Source of the DNA: Chiloscyllium plagiosum
Lineage: Eukaryota
Assembly: GCF_004010195.1 (NCBI RefSeq)
Contig: NC_057752.1
Coordinates: forward strand, 15,306,371 to 15,354,227
Length of the DNA stretch: 47,857 nucleotides
Reading direction: 5' to 3'
Shown here: one piece after another, positions 1 through 29,280 of the stretch
Position numbering within the stretch: the stretch's first letter is position 1
Layout of the letters: every line of letters starts with the position of its first letter
The notes under the pieces: generated by a model
What the model was told of the DNA's origin: nothing
Seen by the model: only the letters and a program-made list of their open reading frames with translations
Database searches by the model: none
Program-made: the position numbers and the translations under genes

Positions 1-1225
1 CTCGACCACTTCCTTCCTGCCTGACAGGTATATACTTATCAAGGACATGCAGTAGCTGTTCCTTGAATAAGCTGCACATTTCAATTGTGCCCATCCCCTG
101 CGGTTTCCTTCCCCATCCTTTGCATCTTAAATCTTGCCTAATCGCATCATAATTGCCTTTCCCCCAGCGATAACTCTTGCCCTGCGGTATATACCGATCC
201 ATTTCCATCGCTCTCGTAAACATAACCAAATTATGGTCACTATCACCAAAGTGCTCATCTGCCTCCAAATCTAACACCTGCCCAGGTTCATTACCCAGCA
301 CCAAATCTAATGTGACCTCGCCCCTTGTTAGCCTGTCTGCATACTGTGTCAGGAAACCCTCCTGCTCACATTGGCCAAAAACTGACCCATCTAAATTACT
401 CGAACTGTAGTATTTCCAGTCAATATTTTGAAAGTTAAAGTCCCCCATAACAACTACCCTGTTACTCTCGATCTTATCCAGGATCATCTTTGCTATCCTT
501 TCCTCTACATCTCTGGAACTATTCGGAGACCTATAGAAAACCCCCAACAGGGTGACCTCTCCTTTCCTGTTTCTAACCTCAGCCCATACTATCTCTGTAG
601 ATGAGTCCTCAAAAGTCCTTTCTGCCACCATAATATTGTCATAGAATCATAGAGTCATAGAGATGTACAGCTCTTGACTAACAATGCCGCACCTCCCCCT
701 CTTTGACCATCTTCTCTGTTCTTATTGAAACATCTAAACCCCTGAACCTGTGACAATCATTCCTGTCCCTGCTCTATCCATGTTTCTGAAATGGCCACAG
801 CATCGAAATCCCAGGTACCAACCCATATTGCAAGTCCACCCACTTTATCCCGGATGCTCCTGCTCACCAGTGAACCCTTGTGACCTTGAAACCTCATTTC
901 TGATCTCTCTGCTCTCGACCTCCTGGACACTGGAATTACAATTTAGTTTCCCATCCCCCTGCTGAATTAGCTTAAACCTGCCAGAAAAGCATTAGTGAGT
1001 TTCCCCCGAGATATTGGTATCCCTCTGGTTCAGTTGTAAACAATCTGTTTGTACAGGTACCACCTACCCCAGAATGAGCCCCAAATATCCAGGTATCCTG
1101 CGCCATCCCTGTAGACACATGTTCAACTCCTCTCTCTCCTTATTCCTCGCCTCACTAGCTCATGGCAGGGCAACAAACCAGAGATAACTCTGTTTTTTCT
1201 AGCACTAAGCTTCCACCCTAGCTCA
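1..1225 (-). mobile_element. CR1-clade LINE fragment: ORF1 C-terminal esterase-like region plus ORF2 APE endonuclease domain
   Basis: Minus strand 640->2 reads without stops: ...VWAEVRNRKGEVTLLGVFYRSPNS...VVVMGDFNFQNIDW...LDLVLGNEPG...FGDSDHNLV..., with APE motifs GDFN and SDH. AVAISETW lies further upstream (~770-810). 970-1225 gives frameshifted ELGWKL..VISGLLP..IWGSFWGRWYLYKQ, typical of the CR1 ORF1 SGNH-esterase end. Confidence 0.92.
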
Positions 1226-3554: not shown

Positions 3555-3616
3555 AAAAAAACAGAAAATGATGGAGAGAGAAACAGATTCGGGTCCAGTG
3601 ACCCTTCCTTCAGAAG
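3555..3616 (-). mobile_element. Penelope-like terminal fragment with degenerate hammerhead motif
   Basis: Minus strand 3613-3588 reads CTGAAG(G)A-A-GGGTC-ACTG-GACCC-GAA. The stem II hairpin is intact; the helix III/cleavage site is deleted. Confidence 0.55.
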
Positions 3617-6080: not shown

Positions 6081-6200
6081 CAAAACAAAATAGTTTGAAT
6101 GCTGGAGATCTGAAATAAAAACGGTGCTGGAGAAAACTCAGCATAACTGGAGAAAGAAAATGAGTTAATGTTTGGAGTTCAACATGACTCTTCTAGGAAA
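6081..6200 (-). mobile_element. Degenerate Penelope-like terminal fragment
   Basis: ATGCTGGAGATCTGAAATAAAAAC..GTGCTGGAGAAAACTCAGCA resembles the GATGCTGGAGATC..GTGCTGGAAA terminus of the other Penelope copies here. A decayed hammerhead-like hairpin lies on the minus strand at ~6165-6197. Confidence 0.5.
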
Positions 6201-6332
6201 CAGTCATTATACCTAAGGAAATGTGCAACTATGTATCTTTGATTGTATCTTCAATGGTTTGACCATGAGGATAGAGGCTACATTGTTAACAGAAAAATAT
6301 TTTATTGCTGTCCACTGTATTCTGATGAAAGG

Positions 6333-6678
6333 TCATAGAATCCCTACAGTGTGGAAACAGGCCCTTCAGCCCAACAAGTTCCAATAAGTAACCTCCAATA
6401 AGTAACTCACCCAGACCCATTCCCCGAACCTATGACTCTACATTTAACCCTACCTAATGCACGTAACCTATGCATCCCTGGACATTATGGGCAATTTAGC
6501 ATGGCCAATTCACCTAACCTCTGGAATGTAGGAGGAAACCGGAGCACCCGGAGGAAACCCACGCAGACACGGAGAGAATGTGCAAACTCCACACAGACAA
6601 TCAGCTGAGGCTAGAATTGGACCCGGGTCCCTGGCGCTGTGTGGCAGCAGTGCTAACCACTGGGTCGCAGTGCCGCCC
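6333..6678 (-). mobile_element. HE1-type tRNA-derived V-SINE, full length
   Basis: Minus strand: head GGGCGGCAC..CAGTGGTTAGCACTGCTGCC..GGGTCCAATTC (pol III A/B boxes), V-domain TGTGTGGAGTTTGCACATTCTC..GGTTTCCTCCGGGTGCTCCGGTTTCCTCC, and CR1-like tail GGGCCTGTTTCCACACTGTAGGGATTCTATGA. Confidence 0.92.
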
Positions 6679-6927: not shown

Positions 6928-7080
6928 GAAGTGGACAGGTAGGACAGGTCAAGAGGTCGGTGCTGAGTTGGAAGGTTGGATCTGGGGTAAGGTGTCGAGA
7001 GTGGTGAAATCTACATTGATGCCGTGTGGTTGGAGGGTCCCAAGGCAGAAGATGAGGCACTCTTCCTCCAGGCATCAGGC
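6928..7080 (-). mobile_element. Penelope-like element fragment (GIY-YIG endonuclease C-terminus and 3' region)
   Basis: Minus strand encodes LEEECLIFCLGTLQPHGINVDF, the LE..LI..LGTL.P.G.N ending of Penelope GIY-YIG domains. Homologous to 8350-8513. Confidence 0.8.
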
Positions 7081-7084
7081 ATCG

Positions 7085-8615
7085 GGGGCCTAGAATCTGG
7101 CGGTGGATTGCAGGGGCTGATTCGAGTAGTTTATTTGTAGACAAAGGGACCTCCGGCAAGTGGGAAGCTTTTAAAAAGTGAGATCGTTAGAGTTCAAGGT
7201 CGACATGTTCCTGTGAGGGTGAAAGGCAAGGTTGGCAGGAATAGGGAACCCGGGATGACAAGAGATGTTGAGGCTTTGACCAGAAAAAAGAAGCAGGTAT
7301 GGATCAGGTACAGGCAACTGGGATCAAGGGAATCCCTGGAGGTATATTGGGAATACAGGAGTTTACTGAAGAAGGAAATCAGGAGGGTGCGAGATAGCCT
7401 TGGCTGAGAAGATTAGGATGAATCCAAAAAGGTTCTTTAAGTATATTAAAGTAAAAGAAAAACAATAACTAGAGAGAAAATCGGGCCACTCAAGGACCAA
7501 AGTGGAGATGTATGTGCAGAACAGCAGCAGATGGGCAAGGTCTTCAATGAATATTTCTTCTCTCTGTTTACTGGCCTTCACCAGTCAGGGCACTGAGTAT
7601 AGAAATTGGGAAGTTATGTTGCAGTTGTACAGGATGTTGGTGAGGCCGAACCTGGAGTATTATGTTCAGTTTTGATCACCTTGCTATCAGAAGGATGTTA
7701 TCAAACTGGAAACAGTGCCAAAGAAATTTTCAAGAATGTTACCTGGACTCAAGGGTCTGAGTTATAGGGAGGGGTTGGACAAGCTAGGACACTTTTCGCT
7801 GGAGCAGAGGAGACTTCGAGAGGAGGGGGAATCATATAGAAATTTATAAGATAATTGGAGGCATGGATAACGTGAATGCACTCAGTGTTTTTCCCAGGGT
7901 TAGGGAATTGAGGACTAGAGGGCATCAGTTAAAGGTTAGAGGGGAAAGCATAAAAAGGAACATGACGAGTAACATTTTTACACAGTGGATGGTACGCATA
8001 TGGAATGAGCTGCCAGCGGAAGTGGTCGAGGTGGATACGTTAACAACATTCATGAAAAGCATTTGGACAAATACATGGCCAGAAAGTATTAGAATGATAT
8101 GGAGAAAGTGAGGATTGCAGATGCTGGAGATCAGAGTCGAGAGTGTGGTGCTGGAAAGAACAGCCGGTCAGGCAGCATCAGAGGAGCAGGAGAGTTGACG
8201 CTTTGGACATAAGGAATGAGGCTTGTGGGCCAGAGGGGTGGAGAGATAAATGGGAAGAGGGTGGGGCTGGACGGGAAGGGAGCTGTGAATGAGATAGGTA
8301 GGTGAAGGTACGGGAGAAGGTGATAGGTTGGAGAGGAGGGTGGAGCGGATAGGTGGGAAAGGTGATTGACAGGTCAGGAGGATGGTGCCCAGTTGGAGAC
8401 TTGGAGCTGGCATAATGTGGGGGGAGAGGAAATGAAGGAAGTGTTGAAATCCACATGGAACCGGTGTGGTTGCAGGGTCCCAAGGTGGAATATGAGGCAT
8501 TCTTCCTTTAGGCCAAGTGCAGGGAAATGGGGTTAGCGTGGATGGATAGTTTGGTCAGCCTTGACCAGTTTGGGCCAAAAGGCCTGTCTCGGTGCTGTAG
8601 GACTCTGTGACTCTA
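7085..8615 (+). mobile_element. CR1 LINE ORF2 with large internal deletion; 3'UTR interrupted by a Penelope element (8101-8513)
   Basis: WEAFK..RVQGRHVPVRVKGKVGRNREP.MTRDVE and NPKRFFKYIK, then a jump at ~7572 to MLQLYRMLVRPNLEYYVQF and IWNELPAEVVE. The 3'UTR resumes at 8511 (GGCCAAGTGCAGG) and ends in GACTCTGTGACTCTA. Confidence 0.88.
8101..8513 (-). mobile_element. Penelope-like element 3' end (GIY-YIG C-terminus through terminal repeat)
   Basis: Minus strand LKEECLIFHLGTLQPHRFHVDFN, followed by a pyrimidine-rich 3' region and the terminal repeat ..GATGCTGCCTGACC..TTCCAGCACCAC..CTCCAGCATCTGCAATCCTCACTTTCTCC. The hammerhead core is deleted in this copy. This copy ties the terminal-repeat family to a Penelope ORF. 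Confidence 0.85.
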
Positions 8616-8786: not shown

Positions 8787-8875
8787 CATTACTAATGAAG
8801 AGCTTATGCCCAAAACATGGACTCGCCTGCTCCTTGGATGCTGTGCTTTTTTCAGCACCATATCGTTCGTCTCTG
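8787..8875 (+). mobile_element. Degenerate Penelope terminal-repeat fragment starting at a decayed hammerhead
   Basis: CATTA-CTAATGA-A-GAGC-TTAT-GCCC-AAAACATG..CCTGCTCCTTGGATGCTGTGCTTTTTTCAGCACCA aligns by eye to 15036-15120. Confidence 0.7.
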
Positions 8876-9071: not shown

Positions 9072-10348
9072 AGTTTGATTTGAGATAGTCAGCACAGCTT
9101 TGTGAGAGGCAGTCCTGCCTCACAAGTGTCATTGAATTCTTTGAGGATGTGACAAAACAGATTGATGAAAGTAGAGTAGTAGATGTGGTGTACATGGATT
9201 TTCACAAGGTGTTTGATAAGGTTCCCCATGGTAAGCTCATTCAGAAAGTAAGGAGGCATGGGATACAGGGAAATCTGGCTGTCTGGATACAGAATTGGCT
9301 GGCCCATAGAAGGCAGAGGGTGTTGGTAGATGGAAATTATTCAGCCTGGAGCTCGGTGACCTGTGGTATTCCACAGGGATCGGTTCTGGGACCTCTGCTC
9401 TTTGTAGTTTTTATAAATGACTTGGATGAGGAAGTGGGAGGGTGGGTTAGTAAGTTTGCCGATGACACAAAGGTCAGTGGAGTTGTGAATAGTATGGCAG
9501 CTGTTGTTAGGTTGCAACAGGACATTGACAGGATGCAGAGCTGGGCTGATAAGTGGCAGATGAAGTTCAACCTGGAAAAGTGTGAAGTGATTCATTTTGG
9601 AAGGTCGAATTTGAATGAAAATTATAGGGTTAAAGGCAGTGTGGAGGAACAGAGGGATCTTGGGGTCTACATACATAGATCCCTCAAAGCTGCCATCCAA
9701 GTTGATAGGGGTGTTAAGAACGCGCTGTGATGTGTTGGCTTTCATTAAAAGGGCATTGAGTTTAAGAGCTGCAAGATTATGCTGCAGCTCTATCGACTCC
9801 TGTTGAGACCACACTTGGAATATTGTGTTCAGTTCTGGTCGCCTCATTATAGGAAGGATGTGGAAGCTTTAGAGAGGGTACAGAGGAGATTTACCAGGAT
9901 GCTGCCTGGACTGGAGGGCATGTCTGATAAAGAAGGGTTGAGAGAACTTGGGCTTTTCTCATTGGAGTGAAGATGGATGAGAGGTGACTTGATAGAGATG
10001 TATAAGATGACGAGAGGCATAGATGGAGTACATAGTCAGAGACCTTTTTCCATAGGAAAAATGGCTATCAGGAGGGGGCATAATTTTAAGGTGATTAGAG
10101 GAAGGTTTCGGGGAGATGTCAGAAGTAGGTTCTTTATGCAGAGAGTGGTGGGTGGGTGGAATGCACTGCCAGCAGTCGTAGTAGAGTCAGATATATTAGG
10201 GACATTTAAGCGACTCTTAGATAGGCACATAGATGATGTACAATGAAAGGTATGTAGGTTAGTTTGATCTTAGAGTAGGATAAAAGGTCAGCACAACATC
10301 AAGGTCCAAAGGGCTGTGCTGTACTGTACTGTTCTATGTTCTATGTTC
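9072..10348 (+). mobile_element. CR1 LINE, 5'-truncated, RT domain to 3' tail
   Basis: VDVVYMDFHKVFDKVPH..GIPQGSVLGPLLFVVFINDL..SKFADDTKV..LEYCVQFWSPHYRKDVEALERVQRRFTRMLPGL, with stops and frameshifts. Tail GTTCTATGTTCTATGTTC. Confidence 0.95.
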
Positions 10349-10390: not shown

Positions 10391-10550
10391 GCATTTCCAA
10401 TGCCCCTCCCCCAAGTCCCTCCTCCCTACCTTTTATCTTAGCCTGCTTGGCACACTTTCCTCATTCCTGAAGAAGGGCTCATGCTCCTGCTTCTCCTGCT
10501 CCTTGGATGCTGCCTGACCTGCTGCACTTTTCCAGCAACACATTTTCAGC
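10391..10550 (+). mobile_element. Short Penelope-derived insertion with 14-bp TSD
   Basis: Flanked by ATCTTCCTTCTATC at 10377-10390 and 10551-10564. Contains CCTGAAGAAGGGCTCATGC (hammerhead 3' half lost) and the GATGCTGCCTGACCTGCTG terminal repeat. Confidence 0.85.
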
Positions 10551-10837: not shown

Positions 10838-11055
10838 AAAAGTGAGGACTGCAGATGCTGGAAACCAGAGTTTAGATCAGAGTGGTGCTGGAAAAGCACA
10901 ACCGGTCAGGCAGCATCCGAGGAGCAGGAAAATCAACATTTCGGGCAAAAGCCCCTTCATCCTGATGAAGGGCTTTTGCCCGAAACATCGATTTTCCTGC
11001 TCCTCGGATGCTGCCTGACCGGTTGTGCTTTTCCAGCACCACTCTGATCTAAACC
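10838..11055. mobile_element. Palindromic Penelope-derived mini-element with 18-bp TSD
   Basis: TSD CCAGAAA(T/C)TGAAGTGGGC at 10820-10837 and 11056-11073. About 91-bp inverted arms at 10870-10960 and 10964-11054, plus an unpaired ~32-bp antisense terminus at 10838-10869. Confidence 0.9.
10962..10989 (+). ncRNA. Minimal type I hammerhead ribozyme motif (helix III mutated)
   Basis: CTGATGA-A-GGGC-TTTT-GCCC-GAAA-C-ATC. Helix III palindrome ACGT has become ACAT. Confidence 0.7.
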
Positions 11056-11647
11056 CCAGAAACTGAAGTGGGCTAGTCATATAGATACAGTGGCTACAAG
11101 AGCAGCTCAGAGGTTAGGAATTATGTGCCAAGTAACCCACCTTGAAAGTGTTACGGAATATTCTCCACTTGTCTAGTTCCAACAACACCCCAGGAGTTTA
11201 ACACCATCCAGGACAAATCAGCCTGCTTGGTTCGTACAATATCAGAAATATTCACTCCTTCTACCACCAATGCTCAGTAGCAACAGTGTGTACCATGTAC
11301 AAGATGAAATTCCAACAATTCACCAAAGTTCTTTAGACAGCAGCTTCCAAACTCATGACCGCTCCTATCTAGAAGGCCAATGCAGCAGATACATGGAAGC
11401 ACCAGCCCCTGCACCTTCCGCTTTAAGCAACTCAACATCTTGACTTTGAAATATGACGCTGTCCCTGCAGTGCTGCTGGGTCAAAACCCAGGAACTCCTG
11501 CCTACCCCACATAAACAGCAGTGGTTCAAGAAGGTACATCTCTCACACTTCCTTCACAGCAATTAGGGATGGGCCAGCCCATGATGGCCACATCCTGTGA
11601 ATTTTTTTTTATAAATCAAAAGGCAAGCACACAAGACTCAGAAAGGT

Positions 11648-13897: not shown

Positions 13898-14960
13898 GTC
13901 AGAAATGTTTACAGCATGGATGCCATTTAGCCAGTCGCGTCTGTGTTAGCTCTTCAAAAGAACAATTCATCTTGTGCTTTTCCCCCTTGCCTTCTCCCCA
14001 CAATCCAGTACACATTTCCTTTTCAGGAAACAATCCAATTTCCTCTTAAAGGCCTTGCCTCTGCTCCTCTGCACTCTCAAGCAGCACTTACTAGATCCTA
14101 ACCACTTGCTGTGTAAAGAAAAATGTTTTCCTCCTGCTGCTCTTGTCAATCACCTTAAATTAGTCTCCTCTGGTTAGTAATCCTTCCACTAATGGGAACA
14201 GTTTCTCTGGATCCTGTCCAGACCTTTGGTGATTTTGAGCACCTCGATCAACTCTCCTCTCAGCCTTCTGTTTTCCATGCAGAACAGTCTTGGTTTCTCC
14301 AATACAGCTTCAGAAATGGAATCGGAAGTGGGTTCTGCAGATGCTGGAGATTAGAGTTAAGATTAGAGTGGTGCTGGAAAAGCACAGCAGGTCAGGCAGC
14401 ATCTGAGGAGCAGGAAAATCGATGTTTCGGGCCGGAGCCCTTCATCAGGAATGAGGCTTGTGGGCTGAGGGGATGGAGTGATAAAATGGTGTTGCTCATC
14501 CTTTGAACCATTCTTGCAAACCTTTTTTGCATTCTCTCGGAACCTTTCACATCTTTCCTGAAGTGTGGTGCCCAAAACTGGTCACAATGAGGCTGAATGG
14601 TAGTTTGTGTGGATTGATCATAACTGCTCTGATAGTGCACTTTGTGCCCCTGCTGTTGAAGTCCAGGATGCTATATTCTTTATTAATCACTTCCTCAGCC
14701 TGTCCTGCCACCTTCAATGCTTTGTGTATATATACTCCGTATTCCCAGGTCCCTCTGCTCCCGTGCCCCTTTTGGAATTGTGCTCTTTATATTGTTCCTC
14801 CAAACTGAATCACTTCATATTTTTCTGTATTACATTTCCTTGACAACATACCAGCCCATTCCACCAGCCTGCCTGTGTTCTCTTGAGGTTCATCAGTACC
14901 TTCCCTATAATCCACAATCCTTCCAAGATTTGTGTGATCCTCCAATTTTGATCCTGTACA
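13898..14960 (-). mobile_element. Old CR1 LINE 3' portion, interrupted by a Penelope fragment
   Basis: Minus strand QPHCDQFWAPHFRKDVKGSERMQKRFARMV and AFKRKLDCFLKRK, with a CR1-type 3'UTR toward 13900. Confidence 0.78.
14324..14486 (-). mobile_element. Penelope terminal-repeat fragment carrying a hammerhead motif (14421-14448)
   Basis: Homologous to 8101-8250. Minus strand CTGATGA-A-GGGC-TCCG-GCCC-GAAA-C-ATC. Confidence 0.85.
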
Positions 14961-15036
14961 CTCAAGTTGGTGTCACTAATAGAGTCATAGGGGCCTAAAG
15001 CACAGACGCAGGCTCATTGGCCTAAACTGGCCCTTC

Positions 15037-15072
15037 ATTCCTGAAGAAGGGCTCATGCCCGAAACGTCGATT
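15037..15072 (+). ncRNA. Minimal type I hammerhead ribozyme motif, intact core, in a Penelope terminal repeat (15034-15125)
   Basis: ATTC-CTGAAGA-A-GGGC-TCAT-GCCC-GAAA-C-GTC-GATT: catalytic core, 4-bp stem II, loopless palindromic helix III (ACGT), GUC cleavage triplet and a short helix I. Confidence 0.8.
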
Positions 15073-15125
15073 CTCCTGTTCCTTGGATGCTGCCTGACCT
15101 GCTGCGCTTTTCCAGCAACACATTT

Positions 15126-15625
15126 NNNNNNNNNNNNNNNNNNNNNNNNNNNNNNNNNNNNNNNNNNNNNNNNNNNNNNNNNNNNNNNNNNNNNNNNNNN
15201 NNNNNNNNNNNNNNNNNNNNNNNNNNNNNNNNNNNNNNNNNNNNNNNNNNNNNNNNNNNNNNNNNNNNNNNNNNNNNNNNNNNNNNNNNNNNNNNNNNNN
15301 NNNNNNNNNNNNNNNNNNNNNNNNNNNNNNNNNNNNNNNNNNNNNNNNNNNNNNNNNNNNNNNNNNNNNNNNNNNNNNNNNNNNNNNNNNNNNNNNNNNN
15401 NNNNNNNNNNNNNNNNNNNNNNNNNNNNNNNNNNNNNNNNNNNNNNNNNNNNNNNNNNNNNNNNNNNNNNNNNNNNNNNNNNNNNNNNNNNNNNNNNNNN
15501 NNNNNNNNNNNNNNNNNNNNNNNNNNNNNNNNNNNNNNNNNNNNNNNNNNNNNNNNNNNNNNNNNNNNNNNNNNNNNNNNNNNNNNNNNNNNNNNNNNNN
15601 NNNNNNNNNNNNNNNNNNNNNNNNN
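15126..15625. other. Assembly gap (500 N)
   Basis: Run of N. The round size suggests a scaffolding join of unknown true length. Confidence 0.99.
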
Positions 15626-18600
15626 TGAGTGCAATTTGATTCATTAAATTTATGAGTTAAGTTTGGTTCGTTGAACGTATGATTGAAATTTGATTCAATG
15701 AATGAATGAATGCCGTTCGAGTCTTTGAATGAATGAGTTGAGCTTGAAACATTGAATGATTGAGAGAAGCTCTACACGGCGAATTAACGCGTGAGGCTTG
15801 TTTCATTGAATGAATGAATGAGGGCAGTTTGTTTCATTGAATGAACGATTGAAGTTAGATTCAACGAATCAATGAATGCAGTTTCTTTCATTTAATGAAG
15901 ATGTTAAACTTGAGACATTCAATATATGAGATAAGCTGGACTCGTTGAATTAGCACATGCATTTTGTTTCATTGAACGTTTGAGTGCAGTTTGATTAATT
16001 GATTGAATGAATGCAGTTTGCTTCATTGATTGAATGCGTCAAGCTCGAGACATTGAACGAATGAGATTAGCTCTACTGAGTGAATTAACATGTGAGGTTT
16101 GTTTCATTAAATGAATGAGTGTATGTTTCAGTAAATGAATGAGTGCAGTTTGACTCATTAAATGTATTAGTTAAGTTTGTTTTACTGAATGAATGATTGA
16201 AGTGTGATTTAATGAATGAATGAATGCAGTTTGACTCTTTGAATGAATGAGAGAAGCCCTACACGTTGAGTTTACGCGTGTAGTTTGTTTCATTCAATGT
16301 ATGAGGGCAGTTTGATTCATTGAATGGATTAAAACAGTTTGATTCATTGAATGCATGAATGCATTTGGATTAATTCAATGAATGAGTTAAGTTTGTTTCA
16401 TTGATCTATGAATAATGTTTGTTGTTAAGGTTGTTTCATTAAATGAATGAGTGCAGTTTGATTCTTTGATTGAATGAAGGCAGTTTGATTCATTGATTGA
16501 ATGAAGGCAGTTTGATTCATTGAATGAATGAATGCAGTTGGATTCATGAAATGAATGAGTTATCTTTGTTTCATTTAAGCAATGAATAACGTTTAATTCA
16601 TTGAATGATTGATTGAAGTTAGATTCAATGCATAGATGAGATAAGCCCAAACCATTGAATTAACACCGGCATTCTGTTTCATCCAATGAATGACTGCACT
16701 TTGTTTCAGAAACTGGAGTGCTGTTTGTATAATTACTTGCATGAGTTAAGTTTTTTGCATTGAATGATTAAGTGTAGTTTGATTCAATGAATGAATGCAG
16801 TTTGATGCTTCGAATGAATGAATGAAGTTTGATTCATTGAATGAATGATTGCAATTTGATTCTTTGAAAGAATGTGTTAAGCTCGAGACATTGAATGAAA
16901 GAGAGAATCTCTATTCATTGAATTAGCACATGCAGTTTGTTTCATTGAATGAATGAGTGCAGTTTGATTCATTGAATGAGTGAATACGGGTGGATTCATT
17001 AAATGAATGAGTTAAGTTTGTTTCATTGAATAAATGAAAAACGTTTGAATCATTGAATGAACGATTGAACTTTGATTCAATAAATGAACAATTGAAGTTG
17101 GATTCATTAATCTATGAGTTAAGTTTGTTACATTGAATCAAAAATAACTTTTAATTCAAATAATGAATGACTGAAGTTAGATTCAATGAATGAATGAATA
17201 AATGCAGTGTAATTTTTTAAATGAATGAGTTAAGCTCGCGACATTGAATGAATGAGAGAACGTCTACTCAGTGGATTAACACGTGCAGCTTGTTTCAGTG
17301 AATGAATGATTGCAGTTCGAATAATTGAATGATTGAATGCAGTTTGATTCATTGAATGTACGAATGAACGCAGTTTGATTCATTGAATGAATGAATACAG
17401 TGGGATTCATGAAATTAATGCATTAAGTTTGTTTCATTGAATCAATGAATAACGTTTGATTCATTGAATGTACGATCCAGGTTTGTTTCATTAAATGAAT
17501 GAATACAGTTTGATTCATTGAATGAATAAATGAAGCTTTATTCATCGAAAAAACTAAAGCAGTTTAATTCTTTGAATGAATGAGTTAAGCTCGAGACATT
17601 GAATGAGTGAGAGAAGCAGTTTGTTTCATTGAATGAATGAGTGCGGTTTGTATAAATGCATTCAGTTTGATTCATTGAATGAATGTATTCAGTCGGATTC
17701 TTCGAATGAATGAAAGTAGTTTGATTCGTTGTATGAATGAGTTCAGCTCGCGACATTGAATAAATGAGCAAAGCTCTGCTCATTTAATTAACTGCAATTG
17801 ATTGAATGCAGTTTAATTCTTTGAACGAATGCGTTGAGCTCGAGACATTGCATGAATGAGAGAAGCTCTACTCGTTGAATTAATACGTGCAGTTTATTTC
17901 ATAGAATGATTGAGTGCAGTTTGATTCATTGAATGAATGAAAGCATGCAGTTTAATTCTTCGGATCAATGAATTCAGTTGGATTCATTAAACGAATGAGT
18001 TAAGTTTTTTCATTGAATCAATGACTAACATTTGATTCATTGAATGAATGATTGAAGATAGATTCAATGAAGTTTGTTTCATTGAATAAAGGTGTTAAGC
18101 TTGAGACATGGAATGAATAAGATAAGCTCTTCTCATTGAATTAATGTGCATTTTGTTTCATTGAATGAATGAGTGCCGTTAAGTTACTTTCATTGAGTGA
18201 ATGATTGAAGTTTGATACAATGAATGACTGATTTCAGTTTGAATCTTTTAATGAATGCTGTATGCATGGAATGAATGAGAGAAGCTCTACTCATTGAATT
18301 AACACGTGCAGTTTGTTATCATTGAATGAATGAGTGCATTTTGATTCATTGCATGGATGAATGCTGTTGGATTGATTAAATGAGTAAAGTTTGTTTTATT
18401 GAATGAATAAATAAGGTTTGATTCATTGAATGGACGATTGCTGTTTGATTGATTAAATAAATGAATGCAGCCTGATTCATTGTATGCATGTGTTAAGTTT
18501 GTTTCATTGAACGAATGATTGAACTTTGATTCAATAAATGAATGAATACAGTTTGAATCATTAAATGTATGAGTTCAGTTTGTTTCATTGAATCAATGAA

Positions 18601-21600
18601 TAACATTTGGTTCATTGAACGAAGGATTGAACTTTGATTCAATAAATGAATGAATGCAGGTTGATTAATTTAATGTATGTGTTAAGCTTGAAAAATTGAA
18701 TGAATGAGATAAGCACTTTCATTAAATTAACACATACAGATGTTTCATTGAATGAATGAGTGCAGTTTGATACATTGAATGAATGATGAATGCAGTTTGA
18801 TCCCTGGAATAAATGAATGCAGTAGGATTCATTAAGTGAATGAAATGTTTGTTTCATTGAATTAATGAATAAAATTTGGTTCGCTGATTGTACAACTGAA
18901 GTTTTGTTCAATGAATGAATGAATGAATGCAGTTTGTTTCATGGAATGAATGAAAGCATTGTGATTCACTGAATGAATGAATGAACGCAGGTGGTTTCAG
19001 TAAACAAATGAGTGCAGTTTGAGTGCAGTTATACTTGAGACATTGAATGAATGAGAGAAGCCCTACTCATTGAATTAACACATGCAGTTTGCTTCATTGA
19101 ATTAATGAATGCAGTTTGTTTCATTAAATGAATGAGTGAAGTTTGATTAATTAAATGTACGAGTCAAGTTGGTTTCATTGAATCAATATATAACGTTCGA
19201 TTATAACGTATGATTGAAGTTTGAATTATTAAATGAATGAATGCAGCTTTATTCATTAAATGTATATGTTAAGTGTGTCACATTGAATCAAGGAAGAATG
19301 ATTCATTGAATGAACGCTTGAAGATTGATTCAATGAATGAATGCAGTTGTATTCTTTATATAAATAACTGAAGCTTGAAACATTGAATGAATGAGATAAA
19401 CTGTACTCATGGAATTAACAAGTTCAGTTTGTTTCATTGAATGAATGAATGCAGTTTGATTCTTTGAAGGAATGAGTTAAGAACGAGACATTGACTGAAT
19501 GAGAGAAACTCCACTCATTGAATTAACCAATGCAATTTGTTTCGTTGTGTGAATCAGAGCAGTTTGATGCATTCAATGAATAAATGCCATTTCATTCAGT
19601 AAATGTATGAGTTATTTTGTTTCATTTAATCAATGAATAGCGTTTCAATCATTGAATGAGCGATTGAAGTAGGATTCATTAAATGAATGAATACAGTTTG
19701 TTTAATTAAACTTAAACTTGGTTTTGTTGGAGAAATGACAATCGTTTGATTCATTGAATGAATGATTTAAGTTTGATTCAACGAATAAATGAATGCAGTT
19801 TGATTCTTTAAATGACTGAGTTAAGCTCGACACGTTGAATGAATGAGAGAAGCTCCACTCGCTGAATGAACACGTGCAATTTGTATCATTGAATAAATGA
19901 CTGCAGTTTGATTCATTGAACGAATGAATGTAGTTGGATTCATTAAATGAATGAATCAATGCAGATTGCTTCATTGAATGGCTGAGTGAATTTGATTCAT
20001 TGAATGAATGAATGAATGCAGTTGGATTCAGTGAGTAAATGAATGCAGTTGGATTGATTAAATGAATGAGTTAAGATTATTTAATTGAATCGATGAGTAA
20101 CGTTTGACTCATTGAAACAACGATTATGGTTTGATTCACTGAATGAATGATTGCAGTTTGATTCATCGAATGAATGAATGCAGTTGGATTCATTAAAAGA
20201 ATGAGTTAGTTTTTTTTCCCTTGAATCAATGAATAACGTTTGATCTATTGAATGAACGATTGAAGTTTTATATAATGAATGAAAGAATGAAGTTTGATTC
20301 TTTGAATAAATGTGTGCAGTTTGATTCATTAAATGTATGCGTCAAGACAGTTTCATTAAACCAAGGAATAACATTTGATTCATTGAATGAATGATTGAAG
20401 TTTGATTCAATTAATCAACGAATGCTGTTTGTTTGATTGAATGAATGTGCTAAACTTGATACATTGAATGAATGAGAGAAGCTCCACTCATTGAATTAAC
20501 ACAATTTGTTTCAGTTTGATTCATTGAATGAATGAATGCAGGTTGGTTCATTAAACTTAAATTGGTTTCATTGAATAAATGAATTACATTTGATTTATTG
20601 AATTAACATTGAAGTTTGATTCAGTGAATTAATGAATGCAGTTGGATGCTTTGAATCCAAAAGTTCAGCTCGTGACATTGAAAGAATGACAGAAGCTCCA
20701 CTCAGCATGTTTCATTGAATGAATGAGTGCAGTTTGATTCATTGAATGAATGCAGTTTGATCCATTAAAGGAATGAGTGCAGTCTGATTCTTTAAATGCA
20801 TGAGTTAAGATAGTTGCATTAATACAAGGAATAACGTTTGATTCATTGAATGAATGATTGAAGTTTGATTCAATAAATGAACAAATGTTGTTTGTTTCAT
20901 TGAATGAATGCACGAGGCTCAAGACATTGAATGAATGAAAGAAGCTCTACTCATTGAATTAATATGTGCAGTTTGTTTCATCGAATGTGTGACTCCAGTT
21001 GGATTCATTAAATGAATGAGTTTAAGTGTGTTTCAGTGAATCGATGAATATCTTTCGATTAATTAAACGAACGATTGAGATTTGTTTGACTAGATGAATG
21101 AATGCAGTCTAATACTTGGAATGCAGGAGTGAAATAACACGTTGAGATTGTTTCATTGAATGAATGAGTGCGATTTGATTCATTGAATGAATGCGCATTC
21201 ATTCATTCAATGGATAAAACGTTATTCTTTGATTTAATGAAACAAACTTAACTCATATATTCACCGACTCAACCTGCATTTATTCATTTCATGAAACAAA
21301 CTTCAATCATTCATTCAATCAATCAAACGCTATTCATTGTTTTAATAAAGCAAACGTAACGTTCTTCGTTGATTCAATGAAATAAACTTAACACAAGCTG
21401 CACGTGTTAATTCAATGGGTAGAGCATATCACATTCATTCGATGTCTCGAGCTTAATGCATTCACTCATTGAAACAAACTACATTCAACTATTCAATAAA
21501 ACAAACTTAACGTATTTATTCAGTGAAACAAACTTAATTTATTCATTTAATGAATCAAACTGCATTCATTCATTCAATGAATCCTGCTGCATTCATTAAT

Positions 21601-24600
21601 TCAATGTATTAAACGACACTCATTCATTTAATGAATCAAGCTGCATTAATTTATTCGTTGAATTAAACTTCAATCATTCATTGAAAGAAACAACATTAGC
21701 TCATGCATTTAATTAATCAAACCATATTCATTCCTTTATTGGAATAAACTACACATTCTTCAAAATACAGACTGCACGTGTTAATACAAAGAGGAGAGCT
21801 GATCTCATTCATTCAATGTCTCGAGCTTCATGCATTCATTCAATGAAACAAACTACATTCCCTCACACAACAAAACAAACTGCGCTCAACCATTCAATGA
21901 AACAGAGCACAGGTGTTAATTCAATGAGGAGAGCTTAACTCATTCCTTCAATGTCTCGAGCTTAATGCATTCATTCAATGGAAAAAACAAATGCATTCCT
22001 TTATGCAATGAATCAAACTGCACTCTATCATTCAATGAAACATAACGCACGTGTTAACTCAATGAGGGCAGCTTATCTCGTTCATTCAATGTCTCGAGCT
22101 TAACGCATTCATTCAATTAAACGAACTGCATTCATTCATTCATTGAATTAAACTTCAATCATTCGTTCTATGAAACAAACTTAACTCATAAATATAATGG
22201 ATCAAACTGCACTTGTGCATCTATTGAAACAAGCTGCACCATTCATTCATTAAATGAATCAAATTTAGCTCATTCATTTAATTAATCCAACTGCATTCAT
22301 TCATTCCATGAATCAAACTGCTTTCATTCATGCAATGAATCAAACCGCACTTATTCATTCAATGAAACAAACTTAGCACGTACATTTAATGAATCCAACT
22401 GCATTAATTCATTTAGTGAAAGTGCATTCAACCATTCAATGAAACAAAGTACACGTGATAATTCAGTGTGTAGAGCTTATCTCATTCATTCAATGCCTTG
22501 AGTATAACGCATTCATTCAATGACACAAACTGCATTCATTCATGCAATGAATCAAACTGCAGTCAATCATTCAATGAAACAAAACGCAGGTTTTAATTTT
22601 CAATCAGTTGAGCTTATCTCATTCATTGAAAATCGCGAGCTTAACTGCATTCATTCATTGAATCTAACTTCAATCATTCATTCAATAAACGCAAACGTCA
22701 TTCTCTGATTCAATGAAACAAACTTAACTCATGCATTTAATGAATCAAACTGCAGTTTTGCATTTACTGAAACAAACTGTACTCATTCATTCAATTGAAC
22801 AAAGCACACGTTTTAATTCATCTCATTCATTCAAAATGCCGAGCTTAACGCATTCATTCAATGAAACAACCTGCATTCATTCATTTATTGAATGTAACGT
22901 CAATCATTCACTCAATGAATCAAACGTTATTCTTAGATTCAATGAAACAAACAGCACTCATACATTCAATGCATCAAACTGAATCCATTCATTCAAGGAA
23001 ACAAAGTGCATTCATTAATTCAATGTATTAAACGGCACTCATTCATTTAAAGAATCAAGCTGCATTAATTCATTCGTTGAATCAAACTGCAATCATTCGT
23101 TCGATGAAACAACCTTAGCTCATGCATTTAATGAATCAAACCATATTCATTCCTTTATTGAAACAAACTACACTCATTCTTCAATGATACAAAGTGCACC
23201 TGTTAATTCAATGAGGAGAGCTGATCTCATTCATTCAATCTCTCGAGCTTAACGCATTCATTCAATGAAACAAACTGCATCCCCTCACTCAACAAAATAA
23301 ACTGCGGTCTACCATTCAATGAAACAGAGCACAGGTGTTAATTCAAAGAGTAGAGCTTAACTCATTCATTCAATGTCTCGAGCTTAATGTAAAAAAACAA
23401 CTGCGTTCCTTCATGCAATGAATCAAAATGCACTCAAACATTCAATGAAACAGAACGCACGTGTTAACTCAATGAGTGCAGCTTATTTCATTCATTCAAT
23501 GTCTCGTGCTAAACGCATTCATTCAATTAAACGAACTGCATTCGTTCATTCATTGAATCAAACTTCAATCATTCGTTCTATGAAACAAACTTAACTCATA
23601 AATTTAATGAATCAAACTGCACTTGTGCATTTATTGAAACAAATTGCACCCATTCTTTCATTAAATGAATCAAATTTAACTCATTCATTTAATTAATCCA
23701 ACTGCATTCATTCATTCCATGAATCAAACTGCTTTCATTCATGCAATGAATCAAACCGCACACAATCATTCAATGAAACAAACTTAGCACATTCATTTAA
23801 TGAATCCAACTGCATTCATTCATTTAGTGAAAGTGCATTAAACCATTCAATGAAACAAAGCACGCGTGTTAATTCAGTGTGTAGAGCTTATCTCATTCAT
23901 TTAATATCTCGAGCTGAACTGCATTGGTCCATTCATTGAATCTAACTCCAATCATTCATTCAATGAACGTAACGTCACTTTCTGATTCAATGATACAAAC
24001 TTAACTGATACATTTAACGAATCAAACTGCAGTTATGCATTTACTGAAACAAACTGTACGCATTCATTCAATGAAACAAAGCACACGTTTTAATTAATCT
24101 CATTCATTCAATATGCCGAGCTTAAAGCATTCATTCAATGAAACAATCTGCATTCATTCATTTATTGAATATGACGTCAATCATTCATTCAATGAAAGAA
24201 ACAACGATTTGAAACAATGAATAAAGTTTGAATGATTGAATGAACGATTGATGTTTAATTCATGAAATGAATTAATGCAGTTTGATACATTTAATAAAAG
24301 TTAAGTTTGTTTCATTGATTCAAAGCATAACGTTAGATTCATTGAATGAATGATTGAAGTTAGATTCAATGAATGAATGCAGAAACAAAGTACACGTGTT
24401 AATTCAATAAGTCGAGCTTATCTCATTATTTCAATGTCTCGAGCGTCAGATTTTCATTCAGTGAAACAAACTGCATTCTCTCATTCAATAAGTCAAATGA
24501 ACTCAACCATTCAATGAAACAAAGCACACGAGTTAATTCAGTGAGTAGAGCGTATCTCATTCATTCAATGCCTCGAGCTTAACGCATACATTCAATGAAA

Positions 24601-24844
24601 CAAACTACATTCGTTAATTCAATCAGTTGAGCTTATCTCATTAATTGAATATCTCGAGCTTAACTGCATTCGTCCATTCATTGAATCTAACGTCAATCAT
24701 TCATTCAATGAACCAAACGTTATTCTTTGATTCAATGAAACAAACTTAACTCATACATTCGGAGATGCCGGGGTTGGACTGGGGTGTACAAAGTTAAAAA
24801 TCACACAACACCAGGTTATAGTCCAACAGGTTTAATTGGAAGCA

Positions 24845-24879
24845 CACTAGCTTTCGGAGCGACGCTCCTTCATCAGGAC
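24845..24879 (-). ncRNA. Minimal hammerhead ribozyme motif, antisense twin
   Basis: Minus strand GTC-CTGATGA-A-GGAGC-GTC-GCTCC-GAAA-G-CTA-GTG. The core is intact; helix I is disrupted by the inversion junction. Confidence 0.7.
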
Positions 24880-24886
24880 GAACAAT

Positions 24887-24921
24887 CACCTGATGAAGGA
24901 GCATCGCTCCGAAAGCTAGTG
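24887..24921 (+). ncRNA. Minimal type I hammerhead ribozyme motif, all helices intact
   Basis: CAC-CTGATGA-A-GGAGC-ATC-GCTCC-GAAA-G-CTA-GTG: helix I CAC/GTG, 5-bp stem II, palindromic helix III AGCT, CUA cleavage triplet. Confidence 0.85.
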
Positions 24922-27900
24922 TGCTTCCAATTAAACCTGTTGGACTATAACCTGGTGTTGTGTGATTTTTAACTTAACTCATACATTTAATGAATCAAAC
25001 AGCAGTTATGCATTTTCTGAAACAAACTGGACTCATTCATTCAATGAAATAAAACACACATTTTAATTCAATGCGTATGGCATTCGCATTCATTCAATAT
25101 TCCGAGCTTAAATCGTTAATTCAATCATTCAAACTTTATTTATTGTTTCAAAGAGTTAAGTTTGTATCAGTGAATCAGAGAATGACGTTTGGTTCATTGA
25201 ATGAATGATTGAAGTTAGATTCAATGCATGAATGAATGCAGGTTGTTTCATTGAATGAATGCGTTAAGCTCGGCATATTGAATGAATGAAAATGCGATAC
25301 ACATTGAATTAAAACGTGTACTTTATTTCAGTGAATGAATGAGTCCAGTTTATTTGAGTAAATGCATACCTGCAGTTTGATTCATCAAATGTATGAGTTA
25401 AGTTTGTTTCATTGAATCGAAGAATGACGTTAGGTTCATTGAATGAATGATTGAAGTTAGATTCAATAAATGAACGAATGCAGTTAAGCTCGACATATTG
25501 AATGAATGAGATAAGTTCAACTGATTGAATTAAAACTTGCGTTTTTTTCATTGAATGATTGACTGCAGTTTGATTCATTGCATGAACGAATGCAGTTCGT
25601 TTAATTGAATGAATGCGTTAAGGGCGAGACATTGAATGAATGAGTTAAGCTCTACTCATTGAATTAGCACGTATGCTCTGTTTCATTGAATGGCTGAGCG
25701 CAGTTTGTTTTGTTGAGTGAGCGAATGCAGTTTGTATCATTGAATGAATGCATTCAGTTCGAGACATTGAATGAATGAGATCAGCTCTCCTCTTTGAATT
25801 AACACGTGCAGTGTGTATCATTGAAGAATGGGTGTAGTTTGTTTCAATAAAGGAATGAATATGGTTTGATTCATTAAATGCATGAGCTAAAGGTATTTCA
25901 TCGAACGAATGATTGAAGTTTGATTCAACGAATGAATTAATGCAGCTTGATTCTTTAAATGAATGAGTGCCGTTTAATACATTGAATTAATGAATGTAGC
26001 TTGATTCATTGAATGAATGAATGCAGTTGGATTCTTTAAAAGAATAAGTTAAGTTTGTTTAATTGAATCAATGATTAACGTTTGATTTATTGAGTGAATG
26101 ATTGAAGTTAGATTCAATAAATAAATGAAAGCAGTTGGATTCATTGAATGAATGCGTTAAGCTCCAGATATTGAATGAATGAAACAAACTTAACTCATAC
26201 ATTTAATGAATCAAATTGCATGCCTTCCCTCATTCAATAAATCAAACTGCACTTCAACCATTCAGTCAAACAAAGCGCATGTGTTAATTCAAAGATTAGC
26301 GTTTATCTTGTTAATTCGATGTCTCGAGCTTAACGCATTCATTCAATGAAACAATCTGCATTCATTCATTGAATCTAACTTCAATCATTCAGTCAATGAA
26401 TCAAACGTTATTCTTTGATTCAATGAAACAAACTTAACTTTGATTAGATGTACCAAACTGCACTCATTCATTTAATGAATTAAACTTCAATCGTTGATTC
26501 AATCATTCCAACTTTATTCATTGTTTCAAAGAGTTAAGTTTGTTTCATTGAATCAAAGTATAACGTTCGATTCATTGAATGAATGATTGAAGTTAGATTC
26601 AATAAATGAATGAATGCAGTTTGTTTCACTGAATGAATACCTGTAGCTCGGGATATTGAAATAATGAGAGAAGCTCTACTTATTGAATTAACACGTGTGC
26701 ATTGTTTCATTGAATGGTTTAATGCACTTTCACTAAATGAATGAATGCAGTTGGATTCATTAAATGAATGTGCTAAGTTTGTTTCATTGAATGATTGTGT
26801 GAGGTTTGATTCATTGCATGAATGAAAGCAGTTTGATTCATGGAATGAATGAATGCAGTTGGATTAATTAAATGAATGAGTTAAGTTTGATTCATTTAAT
26901 GAATGAATGGGTGCAGTTTGTTTCAATAAATGCACAAGTGCAGTTTGATTCATTACATTTATGAGTTAAGTTTGTTTCATAGAACGAATGATTGAAGTTT
27001 GATTGAATGAATAAACGAATGCAGTTCGTTTAATTGAATGAATGCGTTAAGCTCGAGACATTGAATGAATGAAATAAGCTGCACACATTGAGTTAACACG
27101 TGCGTTCTGTTTCATTGAATGTTTGAGTGCATTTTGATTCATTGCATGAAGGAACGCAGTTGTTTTTTTTCCATTAAGTTCGAGACATTGAATGAATGAG
27201 TTAAGCTCTACTCTTTGAATTACCACCTGTGCTCTGTCTCATTGAATGGTTGAGCGCAGTTTGTTTTGTTGAGTGAGGGAATGCAGTTTGTTTCATTGAA
27301 TGAATGCAATAAGCTCGAGACATTGAATGAATGAGATCAGCTCTCCTCATTGAATTAACAGGTGCAGTTTGTATCATTGACGAATGAGTGTAGTTTGTTT
27401 CAATAAAGGAATGAATATGGTTTCATTCATTAAATACATGAGCTAAGGTTGATTCATTGAACGAATGATTGAAGTTTGATTCAACGAATCAATTAATGCA
27501 GCGTGATTCTTTAAATCAATGAGTGCCGTTTAAAACATTGAATTAATGAATGCAGCTTGATTCATTGAATGAATGAATGCAGTTGGATTATTTAAGTGAA
27601 TAAGTTAAGTTTGTTTAATTGAATCAATGATTAACGCTGGATTCAATGAGTGAATGTTTGAAGTTAGATTCAATTAATGAATGAATGCAGTTGGATTTAT
27701 TGAATGAATCCGTTAAGCTCGAGACATTGAATGAATGAGATAAGCTCGACTCATTGAATTAACGCGTCCAGTTTGTTTCATTGAATGAATGAATTCAGTC
27801 TGATTCATTGAATGTATCTATCAGTTTGTTTCATTGAACCAAGAGTAGAGTTTAATTCTTTGAATTAATGATTGAAGTTAGATTCAATAAATGAATGAAA

Positions 27901-29280
27901 GCAGTTTGTTTCACTGAATGTATGCGTTAAGCTCCAGACATTGAATGAATGAAACAAACTTAACTCATACATTTAATGAATCAAATTGCATGCCTTCCTA
28001 CATTCAATAATTCAAACTGCATTTCAACCATTCAGTCAAACAAAGCACACGTGTTAATACAATGATTAGAGTTTATCTTGTTAAATCGATGTCTCGAGCT
28101 TAACGCATTCATTCAATGAAACAATCTGCATTCATTCATTGAATCTAACTTCAGTCATTCATTCAATGAATCAAACGTTATTCTTTGATTCAATGAAACA
28201 AACTTAACTTTGATTATATGTATCAAACTGCATTACTTCATTTCATGAATTAAACTTCAATTGTTCATTCAATCATTCAAACTTTATTCATTGTTTCAAA
28301 GCGTTAAGTTTGTTTCATTGAATCAAAGAATAACGTTTGATTCATTGAATGTATGATTGACGTTAGATTCAGTAAATGAATGAATGCAGTTTGTTTCATT
28401 GAATGAATGTGTTAAACTCGGCATATTGAATGAATTAGATTAATTTAAACGTGTGCTTTCTTTGATTGAATGAATGAGTACAGTTTGATTCAGTAAATGC
28501 AGTTTGATTCATTAAATGTATGAGTAAAGTTTTTTTCATTGAATCAGAGAATGACGTTTGCTTCATTGAATGAATGATTGAAGTTAGATTCAATTCAGTT
28601 AAGCTCGCGATATTCAATGAATGAGATAAGCTCAACTGATTGAATTAATGTGTGCGTTTTTTTCATTTAATGATTGACTGCAGTTTGATTCATTGCATGA
28701 ATGAGTGCAGGTTGTTTCATTGAATGAATGCGTTAAGCTCAAGGCATTGAATGAATGAGATAAGCTCTACACACTGAATTAACACGTGTGGTTTGTTTCA
28801 TTGAAGTGTTGAATGCACTTTCACTAAATGAATGAATGCAGTTGGATTCATTAAATGCATGTGGTAAGTTTGTTTCATTGAATGATTGTGTGCGGTTTGA
28901 TTCATTGCATGAATGAAAGCAGTTTGATTCATGGAAGGAATGAATGCAGTTGGATTAATTAAATGAATGAGTTAAGTTTGATTCATTTAATAAATGAATG
29001 GGTGCAGTTTGTTTCAATAAGTGCACAAGTGTAGTTTGATTCATTAAATTTATGTGTTAGGTTTGTTTCATAGAACAAATGATTGAAGCTTGATACAATG
29101 AATGAACGTTCATTTAATTGAATGAATGCGTTAAGCTTGAGACATTGAATGAATGAAATAAGCTGCACTCATTGAGTTAACACGTGCGTTCTGTTTCATT
29201 GAATGTTTGAGTGCATTTTGATTCATTGCATGAAGTAACGCAATTGTTTTTTTTCCATTAACTCGAGACATTGAATGAAT

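Follow-up and report, generated by a model that had tools for sequence, protein, structure and literature searches.

A probable minimal hammerhead ribozyme in the leader of Penelope-like elements of Chiloscyllium plagiosum

We analysed a 47,857-nucleotide stretch of the Chiloscyllium plagiosum genome (contig NC_057752.1, positions 15,306,371 to 15,354,227), hereafter called the window. Positions 15037-15072 of its plus strand are very probably a copy of a minimal type I hammerhead ribozyme lying in the leader, or pseudo-long terminal repeat (pseudo-LTR), of Penelope-like elements (PLEs), with a predicted cut after GUC that would take place probably only when two copies pair through their ACGU or when the element's protein takes part. 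The segment reads AUUC-CUGAAGA-A-GGGC-UCAU-GCCC-GAAA-CGU-C-GAUU. Helix I is made of the strands AUUC (5') and GAUU (3'), the core box is CUGAAGA, and the 4-bp stem II GGGC/GCCC carries the loop UCAU; one extra A follows A9, helix III is a loopless ACGU, and GUC precedes the predicted cut, with C17 at position 15068. The motif is intact and belongs to a repeat family that we call A; it scores 57.3 bits against our covariance model, of which this very copy is a seed.

Motifs of this kind were searched for in the window with the pattern CTGANGA, 8-22 bases, GAAA, and with a strict form adding a stem of at least 4 bp between the two boxes. The six intact sites that an earlier sequence-only reading had listed were all recovered, at 10962-10985(+), 14425-14448(-), 15041-15064(+), 24852-24876(-), 24890-24914(+) and 46812-46835(+). 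Without the stem requirement this number is not unusual (6 found, 4.09 expected, at least 6 in 19 of 100 shuffles); with it, the same six sites compare with a mean of 0.23 and a maximum of 2 in 500 dinucleotide shuffles. This enrichment comes from repeat copies of common descent and not from independent occurrences. Alignment and blastn within the window placed the motifs in two unrelated repeat families, the copies at 10962(+), 14425(-), 15041(+) and 46812(+) in family A and those at 24852(-) and 24890(+) in family B. All six possess both core boxes, the single extra A after A9 and the G10.1-C11.1 pair, while their loops vary (TTTT, TCCG, TCAT, TAAT, ATC, GTC). At H17 family A has C and family B has A, and the cleavage positions predicted earlier, C17 at 15068 and A17 at 24918, agree with ours. 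Helix III is ACGU at 15041 and 46812, AGCU in both family B copies and ACAU at 10962(+) and 14425(-). Helix III had been described as always palindromic; this holds for four of the intact motifs but not as a rule, because two of the four in family A have passed from ACGU to ACAU by CpG decay.

Comparison between families, including family C, a second PLE lineage described below, suggests that the fold has been kept by compensatory change. Family A has AUUC/GAUU as helix I and GGGC/GCCC as stem II, with the variants AUUC/GAAU and GAGC/GCUC in one subfamily each; the corresponding helices are CAC/GUG and GGAGC/GCUCC in family B, and AGCU/AGCU and GGGUC/GACUC in family C. The earlier observation of a stem II that differs between families and yet pairs was confirmed. 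Positions 3 and 8 form a C-G pair in families A and B but a U-A pair in family C, and 15.2-16.2 read GC in family B and CG in the other two. All of these elements, the two helices, the 3-8 pair and 15.2-16.2, covary between families. A search of the genome with an RNA descriptor or covariance model, with a test of covariation, had been proposed as a check. We built a covariance model from seeds of families A and C; family B, which MAFFT failed to bring into structural register with the other two, entered neither the model nor the pair counts and was compared by direct reading. The model gave 133 matches at E <=0.01 in 739 kb. In the alignment of these matches paired cells amount to 85.9%, compared with 77.3% in shuffles, and 130 double-sided changes were counted, compared with 42.7, seven of the nine pairs being changed on both sides. 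The covariation score was 0.421 versus 0.258 and was reached by none of 500 shuffles, while slid partners gave at most 0.10. Within family A, an A at 10.2 (11 of 77 copies) and a U at 11.2 (8 of 77) occur together in 5 copies, against about 1.1 expected.

Conservation was also tallied position by position. Core bases other than N7 are 94-97% constant and N7 is split between A (30) and U (33) in 67 copies; constancy is 58-93% in the loop, 73-83% at CpG positions, 77% in the untranslated region (UTR) and 86-90% in the downstream leader. Such constancy is what a hammerhead maintained in the source elements would show while its copies decay neutrally. An unselected sample of the genome, consisting of sixty 10-kb stretches at round coordinates (600,000 bases, 30,568 of them N), was also searched; together with the window it gave 40 descriptor hits, every one with exactly one nucleotide inserted after A9 and none with zero. 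In family A the 10.1-11.1 pair is G-C in 60 and G.U in 8 of 76 copies, and positions 15.2-16.2 are CG in 39, CA in 20 and UG in 17 of 82, which is CpG decay. The main family A has a U.U mismatch at 2.3-1.3 in 44 of 56 copies. When single motifs are folded stem II always forms, and helix I forms in B, C and one A subfamily.

The link to PLEs is visible already in the window. The segment 8374-8532(-), upstream of a leader-repeat copy on the same strand, translates to ...LIFHLGTLQP...VDFN... and matches a genome copy at 25 of 45 residues (E 4e-12); the domain of that copy in turn aligns to a GIY-YIG domain passing the Pfam cut-off. At 8101-8513 a terminal repeat joined to a GIY-YIG C-terminus had been proposed: the C-terminal end of a PLE endonuclease is indeed present at 8374-8532(-), but the adjoining repeat copy, 8142-8227(-), has lost most of its ribozyme. 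A genome search with the 8374-8532 region returned 5,842 first-look candidates, and one with the endonuclease protein as query 133,950. In decayed genome copies the reverse transcriptase (RT) motifs FYLLPKIHKP..RPIVS..YIDD are followed by VIYCIxCxxCGLLYIGET...LIFxLGTLQP, then by about 160 nt and then by the motif; in loci L055 and L058 the frame with RT and GIY-YIG ends 160 nt upstream of it. The longest frame of L058, a decayed copy, scores 28.7 bits for RVT_1 and 18 bits for GIY-YIG in Pfam, both just below the cut-offs. Full-length relatives of 883-930 residues were found as well (78 proteins at E <=0.001 among 458 candidates); among those of 889-893 residues, P0001 and P0007 pass the RVT_1 cut-off (29.7 and 30.9 bits). 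The GIY-YIG domain of P0007 also passes (28 bits) and occupies residues 801-884 of 893, that is, the C-terminus; the window remnant 8374-8532(-) aligns to the end of this domain. Pfam gave no match for short decayed pieces of the open reading frame (ORF), and a sequence search of the PLE frame against solved structures gave none at E <=1. A single ORF with predicted RT and C-terminal GIY-YIG domains is the architecture of endonuclease-containing PLEs. The link between motif and PLE holds for families A and C, in which the motif lies in the leader or end repeat of elements encoding RT and GIY-YIG.

A search using the N-terminal portion of a relative recovered the 5' regions of two PLE lineages. 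The main frame of the family A lineage (MPSLKK...) has its first ATG 162 nt downstream of the motif; in the second lineage, which carries family C, the distance from the motif to MPTLKK... is 158-167 nt. The family C motif reads AGCU-UUGACAA-A-GGGUC-AGUUA-GACUC-GAAA-CGU-C-AGCU; a U3-A8 core replaces C3-G8, helix I is a perfect 4-bp helix and stem II has 5 bp with one G.U. In elements of the family A lineage the ORF (RT, then GIY-YIG) is followed by about 160 nt of UTR and the hammerhead; about 60 nt further on comes an AC-rich site, after which a tail of about 40 nt may be present. Because the first ATG of the main frame comes about 160 nt after the core, the ribozyme, both start sites of the complementary DNA (cDNA) and the tail all lie in the 5' leader. 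An open frame through the ribozyme in locus L129 was considered as the start of the ORF and rejected, since comparison with L124, L130, L121 and L122 shows that a 1-nt deletion joins the frames there. In the family A leader (L124:1372-1500 region) an ATG 21 nt past the predicted cut opens a frame of about 42 codons overlapping the main start codon, a possible upstream ORF that cleavage would bring close to the 5' end of the RNA. A TATA-like box precedes the first core base by 35 or 36 nt in A, 38 in B and 35 in C. No direct upstream pseudo-LTR was found in four long copies, one of which has an inverted copy instead. The long form of family B is non-coding, measures about 290-320 bp and starts sharply about 200 nt upstream of the ribozyme in 11 of 11 loci. 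Several ribozyme-bearing PLE families active in parallel had been postulated; families A (with its subfamilies), B and C do coexist in this genome, with family A copies at 95-100% identity.

These repeats are very abundant. By blastn the 600-kb sample holds 100 copies of family A and 40 of family B, about one per 4 kb, which as a rough extrapolation would give several hundred thousand copies in the 3.56-Gb assembly; its 34 strict motifs all contain the one-nucleotide insert (33 A, 1 U). Family C is rarer, since no intact U3-A8 motif was met in the sample. In sample and window together, 66 of 150 copies (44%) form 33 head-to-head pairs, besides one tandem and one tail-to-tail pair. The ends of the copies were tallied against one family A reference. 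Among 72 alignments that cover the core, 53 start within -18..+5 and 19 start 31-653 nt upstream in a scattered fashion. Reading the rows individually, about 40 of 70 copies truly begin at the ribozyme; their start coincides with an inverted junction in about 28 and abuts unrelated flank in about 12, often precisely at AUUC. A further 28 copies begin farther downstream, only 3 of them at +25..+28, the cut site (3 of about 98 overall). The 3' ends fall into two groups, 42 at +73..+100, at an AC-rich CAGCAACACAUUU, and 53 at +112..+131, the end of the tail of about 40 nt.

Among young family A loci (95-100% identical), 29 were examined for flanking repeats, and 23 of them are bordered by direct repeats 9-18 bp long, compared with 10 of 210 cross-locus controls; the median longest shared repeat over all 29 is 14 bp. 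Of the 23 loci so bordered, 14 carry the tail on the left (inverted) side and 7 on the right, 2 have it on neither side and none has it on both. With the two classes of 3' ends about 40 nt apart, the repeats show the pseudo-LTR organisation of PLEs, that of inverted or direct partial copies, an optional tail of 30-40 bp at one end and short duplications of variable length. In one young subfamily (L001-L030; in the window, for example, 46763-46811) the inverted left piece always ends on the same bases (...GGAAAUGUGUU) before C-CUGAAG; this constant junction may go back to a hairpin-shaped master copy, or to a recurrent stop with microhomology.

The DNA copies were likely made from uncut RNA, because they retain bases on both sides of the cleavage site; cleavage would therefore serve a step other than templating. 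A scheme that accommodates these observations can be proposed. The UTR would carry a promoter and transcripts would start at helix I, given the TATA-like box 35-38 nt before the core in all three families. The PLE enzyme would prime internally, at the AC-rich site or at the end of the tail, on one or both cut DNA strands, and reverse transcription would run to the 5' end of the RNA. Priming on the leader of any transcript could then produce 'solo leader' copies of 100-140 nt as well as two-armed insertions. Cleavage might separate the units of long transcripts, remove a capped leader or make circles, as Cervera and De la Pena have proposed.

A bolder extension, which we consider possible although we would not bet on it, is that the Penelope transcript of each of the three families opens with the hammerhead, which acts as a fate switch: RNA that is cut would leave the copying pathway for translation, decay or circularisation, and RNA that is not cut would be the template. 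The proposal starts from the TATA-like box about 31-34 nt before helix I and from the fact that most DNA copies begin at helix I. A cut would free the leader of its cap and of the 32-nt ribozyme, and on a full-length RNA it could be triggered by pairing between the 5' and 3' copies through the ACGU palindrome. If this were true, several hundred thousand fossil cDNAs would record that reverse transcription only ever used uncut RNA.

Several results weigh against a cleaving PLE ribozyme or against parts of the scheme built on it. No Rfam hammerhead family matched anywhere in the window, either at the gathering score or at E <=10, and the Rfam hammerhead models gave no match at E <=1 in four loci holding B, C and A copies; these models describe closed helices, which may explain why minimal hammerheads escape them. 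Folding energies of isolated motifs are not distinguishable from those of shuffles (z -0.8 to -1.9), and helix I has just 3-4 bp, with a U.U mismatch in the main family A. Helix III needs a partner, yet same-strand tandem copies are rare (one tandem pair in 150 copies). The covariation goes back to a small number of independent events, namely the split between A and C, family B and two subfamilies of A, in copies that are related, in an alignment fitted to the structure and with four window copies among the seeds. About 10 of the 53 copies scored as starting at the ribozyme continue upstream in diverged UTR, the tally having been made on one reference. The TATA-like boxes are sequence matches only, that of family A (TTTTATC) being weak. 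In one raw single-cell poly-A run (X19), the only one of two to yield reads, reads of the repeat come from both strands, 97% of them continue into unlike flanks and there is no pile-up of ends at the site, although a library of this type is unable to display cleavage ends. Finally, no ORF was found for family B, and since it shows PLE-style ends only, its tie to PLEs is given by insertion architecture alone.

Alternatively, the fold may have been retained chiefly for some function besides cleavage, for example as a protein-binding or leader structure recognised by the PLE enzyme or by the machinery of transcription and translation, with weak or incidental cleavage, or the motif may be a passenger parasitising PLEs. 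Inserted copies do come from uncut RNA, 3 of about 98 beginning at the cleavage site; in the Anolis PLE discussed below insertion in vitro is unaffected by ribozyme mutations and RNA-seq reads ending at the site are absent (PMC11167929), metazoan minimal hammerheads cleave poorly in vitro (PMC4209133), and Naiad PLEs thrive without canonical hammerheads, with parasitism raised by the authors (PMC8557442). However, it is exactly the catalytic core that is conserved, with the sole free position of a hammerhead, N7, indeed free; the 3-8 tertiary pair changes from C-G to U-A in family C, which is unexpected for a mere hairpin or binding site; and the Anolis motif does cut with protein and is rescued by C3G/G8C as a true hammerhead is (PMC11167929). 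We consider a mainly non-cutting role unlikely, and the reading of 15037-15072 as a PLE hammerhead remains the preferred one.

Two other explanations fare worse. The short copies, above all those of family B, might be non-LTR retrozymes, spread by a self-cleaved circular RNA that is copied round and round. The non-coding unit of about 290-320 bp with an internal hammerhead, no ORF seen and a 5' boundary common to 11 of 11 loci would agree with this, and its size of about 300 bp matches the animal non-LTR retrozymes, which are non-coding, hammerhead-bearing relatives of PLE pseudo-LTRs (PMC7229834 and a 2026 preprint by Li, Clavereau and Pollet); derivation from PLE pseudo-LTRs and presence of such PLE-derived hammerhead elements in one cartilaginous fish are reported in preprint 10.64898/2026.07.22.740005. 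Tandem arrays, however, define that class, and here one tandem pair stands against 33 head-to-head pairs in 150 copies; unit boundaries do not coincide with the cleavage site, contrary to what circle-derived copies would show, and target-site duplications with one-sided tails are those of ordinary PLE insertions, which makes the retrozyme explanation very improbable. Least credible of all is that the motifs are chance matches, or that the palindromes are microRNA-like hairpin genes. The loose pattern alone is not enriched, and sub-threshold hits to Rfam microRNA families do fall on the palindromes 24832-24934 and 10930-10992; but the pattern with a stem gives 6 sites against 0.23, thousands of homologous copies lie in PLE context, the hits reach 28-46 bits where gathering scores are 60-81, and a two-armed insertion makes perfect inverted repeats, which accounts for such hits.

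The closest known counterparts are the minimal hammerheads of metazoan PLEs (Cervera and De la Pena 2014, PMC4209133), which occur in fishes, coelacanth, frog and reptiles. They share with the present motifs the core boxes, the extra nucleotide between 9 and 10.1, the G10.1-C11.1 pair, the absence of a helix III loop, the palindromic 15.2-16.2 and a short helix I; they too comprise many consensus families per genome with compensatory changes, and their copies are mostly solitary or in opposite-strand pairs. Stem II is of 4-5 bp here and of 7-8 bp in the Schistosoma families described there, the U3-A8 core was found there in a flatworm PLE and here in a vertebrate-type lineage (family C), and the density of about one copy per 4 kb of our sample is very high.

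For the mechanism, the Poseidon PLE of Anolis carolinensis (PAc; Frangieh et al. 2024, PMC11167929) offers a comparison. It has a hammerhead at the junction of pseudo-LTR and ORF, reverse transcription is initiated internally at two neighbouring sites of an AC-rich region that follows the ribozyme, the tail of 30-40 bp is the stretch between these two sites, and both DNA strands are cut and extended with uncut RNA as template; the sequences described here point to the same features. The PAc hammerhead cuts only when the protein is present, and its mutants insert normally. In PAc, however, the ORF starts in stem II and RT starts lie 111-118 nt into the ORF, whereas here the first main-frame ATG comes about 160 nt after the core, leaving ribozyme, both end sites and tail in the 5' leader. 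In PMC8557442 and PMC3846280, pseudo-LTRs are described as direct or inverted, often with an inverted 5'-truncated copy abutting the element, and with a tail of 30-40 bp often at one end only; the pseudo-LTR of Drosophila Penelope contains the start site, as cited in PMC8557442.

More distant systems offer partial parallels. Going by the relevant citations in PMC4209133, an extra A between A9 and G10.1 occurs in a viroid hammerhead (De la Pena and Flores 2001), which is another RNA and a canonical three-helix ribozyme, and the HDV-like (hepatitis delta virus-like) ribozymes of non-LTR retrotransposons are, by analogy, self-cleaving RNAs at the start of a transcript. The latter belong to another class, cut 5' of themselves and set the 5' end of the RNA, whereas a hammerhead cuts 3' of itself and the ends of the copies described here are not set by the cut.

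The structural features reported here are all already listed for PLE minimal hammerheads (PMC4209133); the class is known, and therefore no new kind of system is described. We did not find a U3-A8 core in a vertebrate-type PLE lineage in the literature searched, where the variant turned up in a single paper, for a flatworm PLE (PMC4209133); supplements may hold related families. Nor did we find it stated there, PMC8557442 included, that the 5' ends of copies, the predicted start site and helix I coincide. The genome, with about one copy per 4 kb, offers a very large natural record of the end-points of PLE reverse transcription. From it can be read the two sites at which cDNAs begin, their stop at the RNA 5' end at helix I, the way in which the two arms were joined and the uncut state of the ribozyme. 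This record agrees with the in-vitro picture of a single lizard element and extends it to other lineages, and it opens the function of the PLE hammerhead to sharper tests. Since both C3-G8 and U3-A8 cores occur in one genome, along with three different helix I sequences, they also provide natural compensatory series for ribozyme assays.

Within the window, blastn delimits family A copies at 8142-8227(-), 8787-8843(+), 10459-10548(+), 10870-10972(-), 10950-11070(+), 14356-14485(-), 15029-15125(+) and 46790-46900(+), and family B copies at 24791-24877(-) and 24880-24975(+). The copy that contains the ribozyme described first, 15029-15125(+), begins at the ribozyme and is cut short by an assembly gap. 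At 46763-46899(+) a young insertion of what we call type 1 form consists of an inverted 49-nt tail piece (46763-46811) followed by the ribozyme (46808-46843) up to the AC-rich end, and is bounded by 15-bp target-site duplications at 46748-46762 and 46900-46914. The segment 10870-11070 is a head-to-head pair: the core of the plus arm is intact (10958-10993), with helix III decayed to ACAU, and that of the minus arm is truncated at the junction (10931-10967(-), AGGAUGA). Two copies include upstream UTR: 14356-14485(-), with the ribozyme at 14417-14452(-) and helix III decayed to ACAU, and 10459-10548(+), in which an internal deletion has removed the 3' strand of stem II through the cleavage site. 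The family B insertion at 24760-24974 is one event, built on the same plan as two-armed PLE insertions. It is composed of an inverted arm with a tail of about 37 nt (24760-24877; ribozyme 24844-24880(-)), a 13-nt spacer and a tailless direct arm (24880-24974; ribozyme 24886-24922(+), A17 at 24918), between 13-bp duplications at 24747-24759 and 24975-24987.

Older remains are also present. The 3' part of an old PLE extends over 8100-8560(-), with the endonuclease C-terminus at 8374-8532, UTR and the leader repeat 8142-8227, whose ribozyme is largely deleted; a further decayed fragment of this 3' region, 70.5% identical to 8368-8513, lies at 6943-7073(-). Of the decayed ribozymes listed by the sequence-only reading, those at 10467(+) and 8792(+) were retrieved by both blastn and the covariance model (20.1 and 18.1 bits), the latter within the partial copy 8787-8843(+), with CUAAUGA as its core. 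Those at about 6170(-) and 3588(-) were retrieved weakly, the former in a leader-repeat copy with a destroyed core (6163-6230(-); 12.0 bits, E 0.63) and the latter at 3588-3613(-), with a GGGUC/GACCC stem and broken boxes (CUGAAGGA, GAAU; 10.9 bits, E 1.4). The site at 6322(+) was rejected: both methods missed it, its 'stem' is unpaired and its bases are part of another repeat. That repeat, different and abundant (…CCCTACAGTGTGGAAACAGGCCCTTC…), starts at 6322-6380(+) and also adjoins a family A copy in locus L026.

A neighbour of the 10962 copy, the RT at 9089-9730(+), was considered as the PLE's own and discarded in favour of a gene of the long interspersed nuclear element (LINE) type, because of its motif FADDTK and the C-terminal tail LEYCVQFWSP..., which we take to be CR1/L2-type LINE features. 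This LINE-type RT extends over 9089-10246(+), scores 79.9 bits for Pfam RVT_1 and is unrelated to PLEs. Fragments of an apurinic-type endonuclease, again LINE-type, lie at both ends of the window (5-646(-) and 47206-47856(+)).

Runs of N directly follow or interrupt PLE copies, as at 15126-15625, where the 3' end of the copy carrying 15037-15072 is lost, and in several of the loci L055-L059; such repeats may disrupt the assembly. Public runs labelled with several different organisms contain near-identical 31-letter words from the family A repeat (window 46700-46960), and this family A subfamily would therefore be shared by, or very similar in, other species. Positions 14000-28000 form a region of about 14 kb with low G+C (0.30-0.33, compared with 0.41-0.50 elsewhere in the window). 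AT-rich palindromic repeats of the TCATTCA/TGAATGA type within this region (for example 21143-21250 and 24147-24383) give weak microRNA-family hits, and a long near-perfect hairpin at 35005-35129, with sub-threshold Rfam microRNA hits of up to 37.8 bits, is possibly another two-armed insertion.

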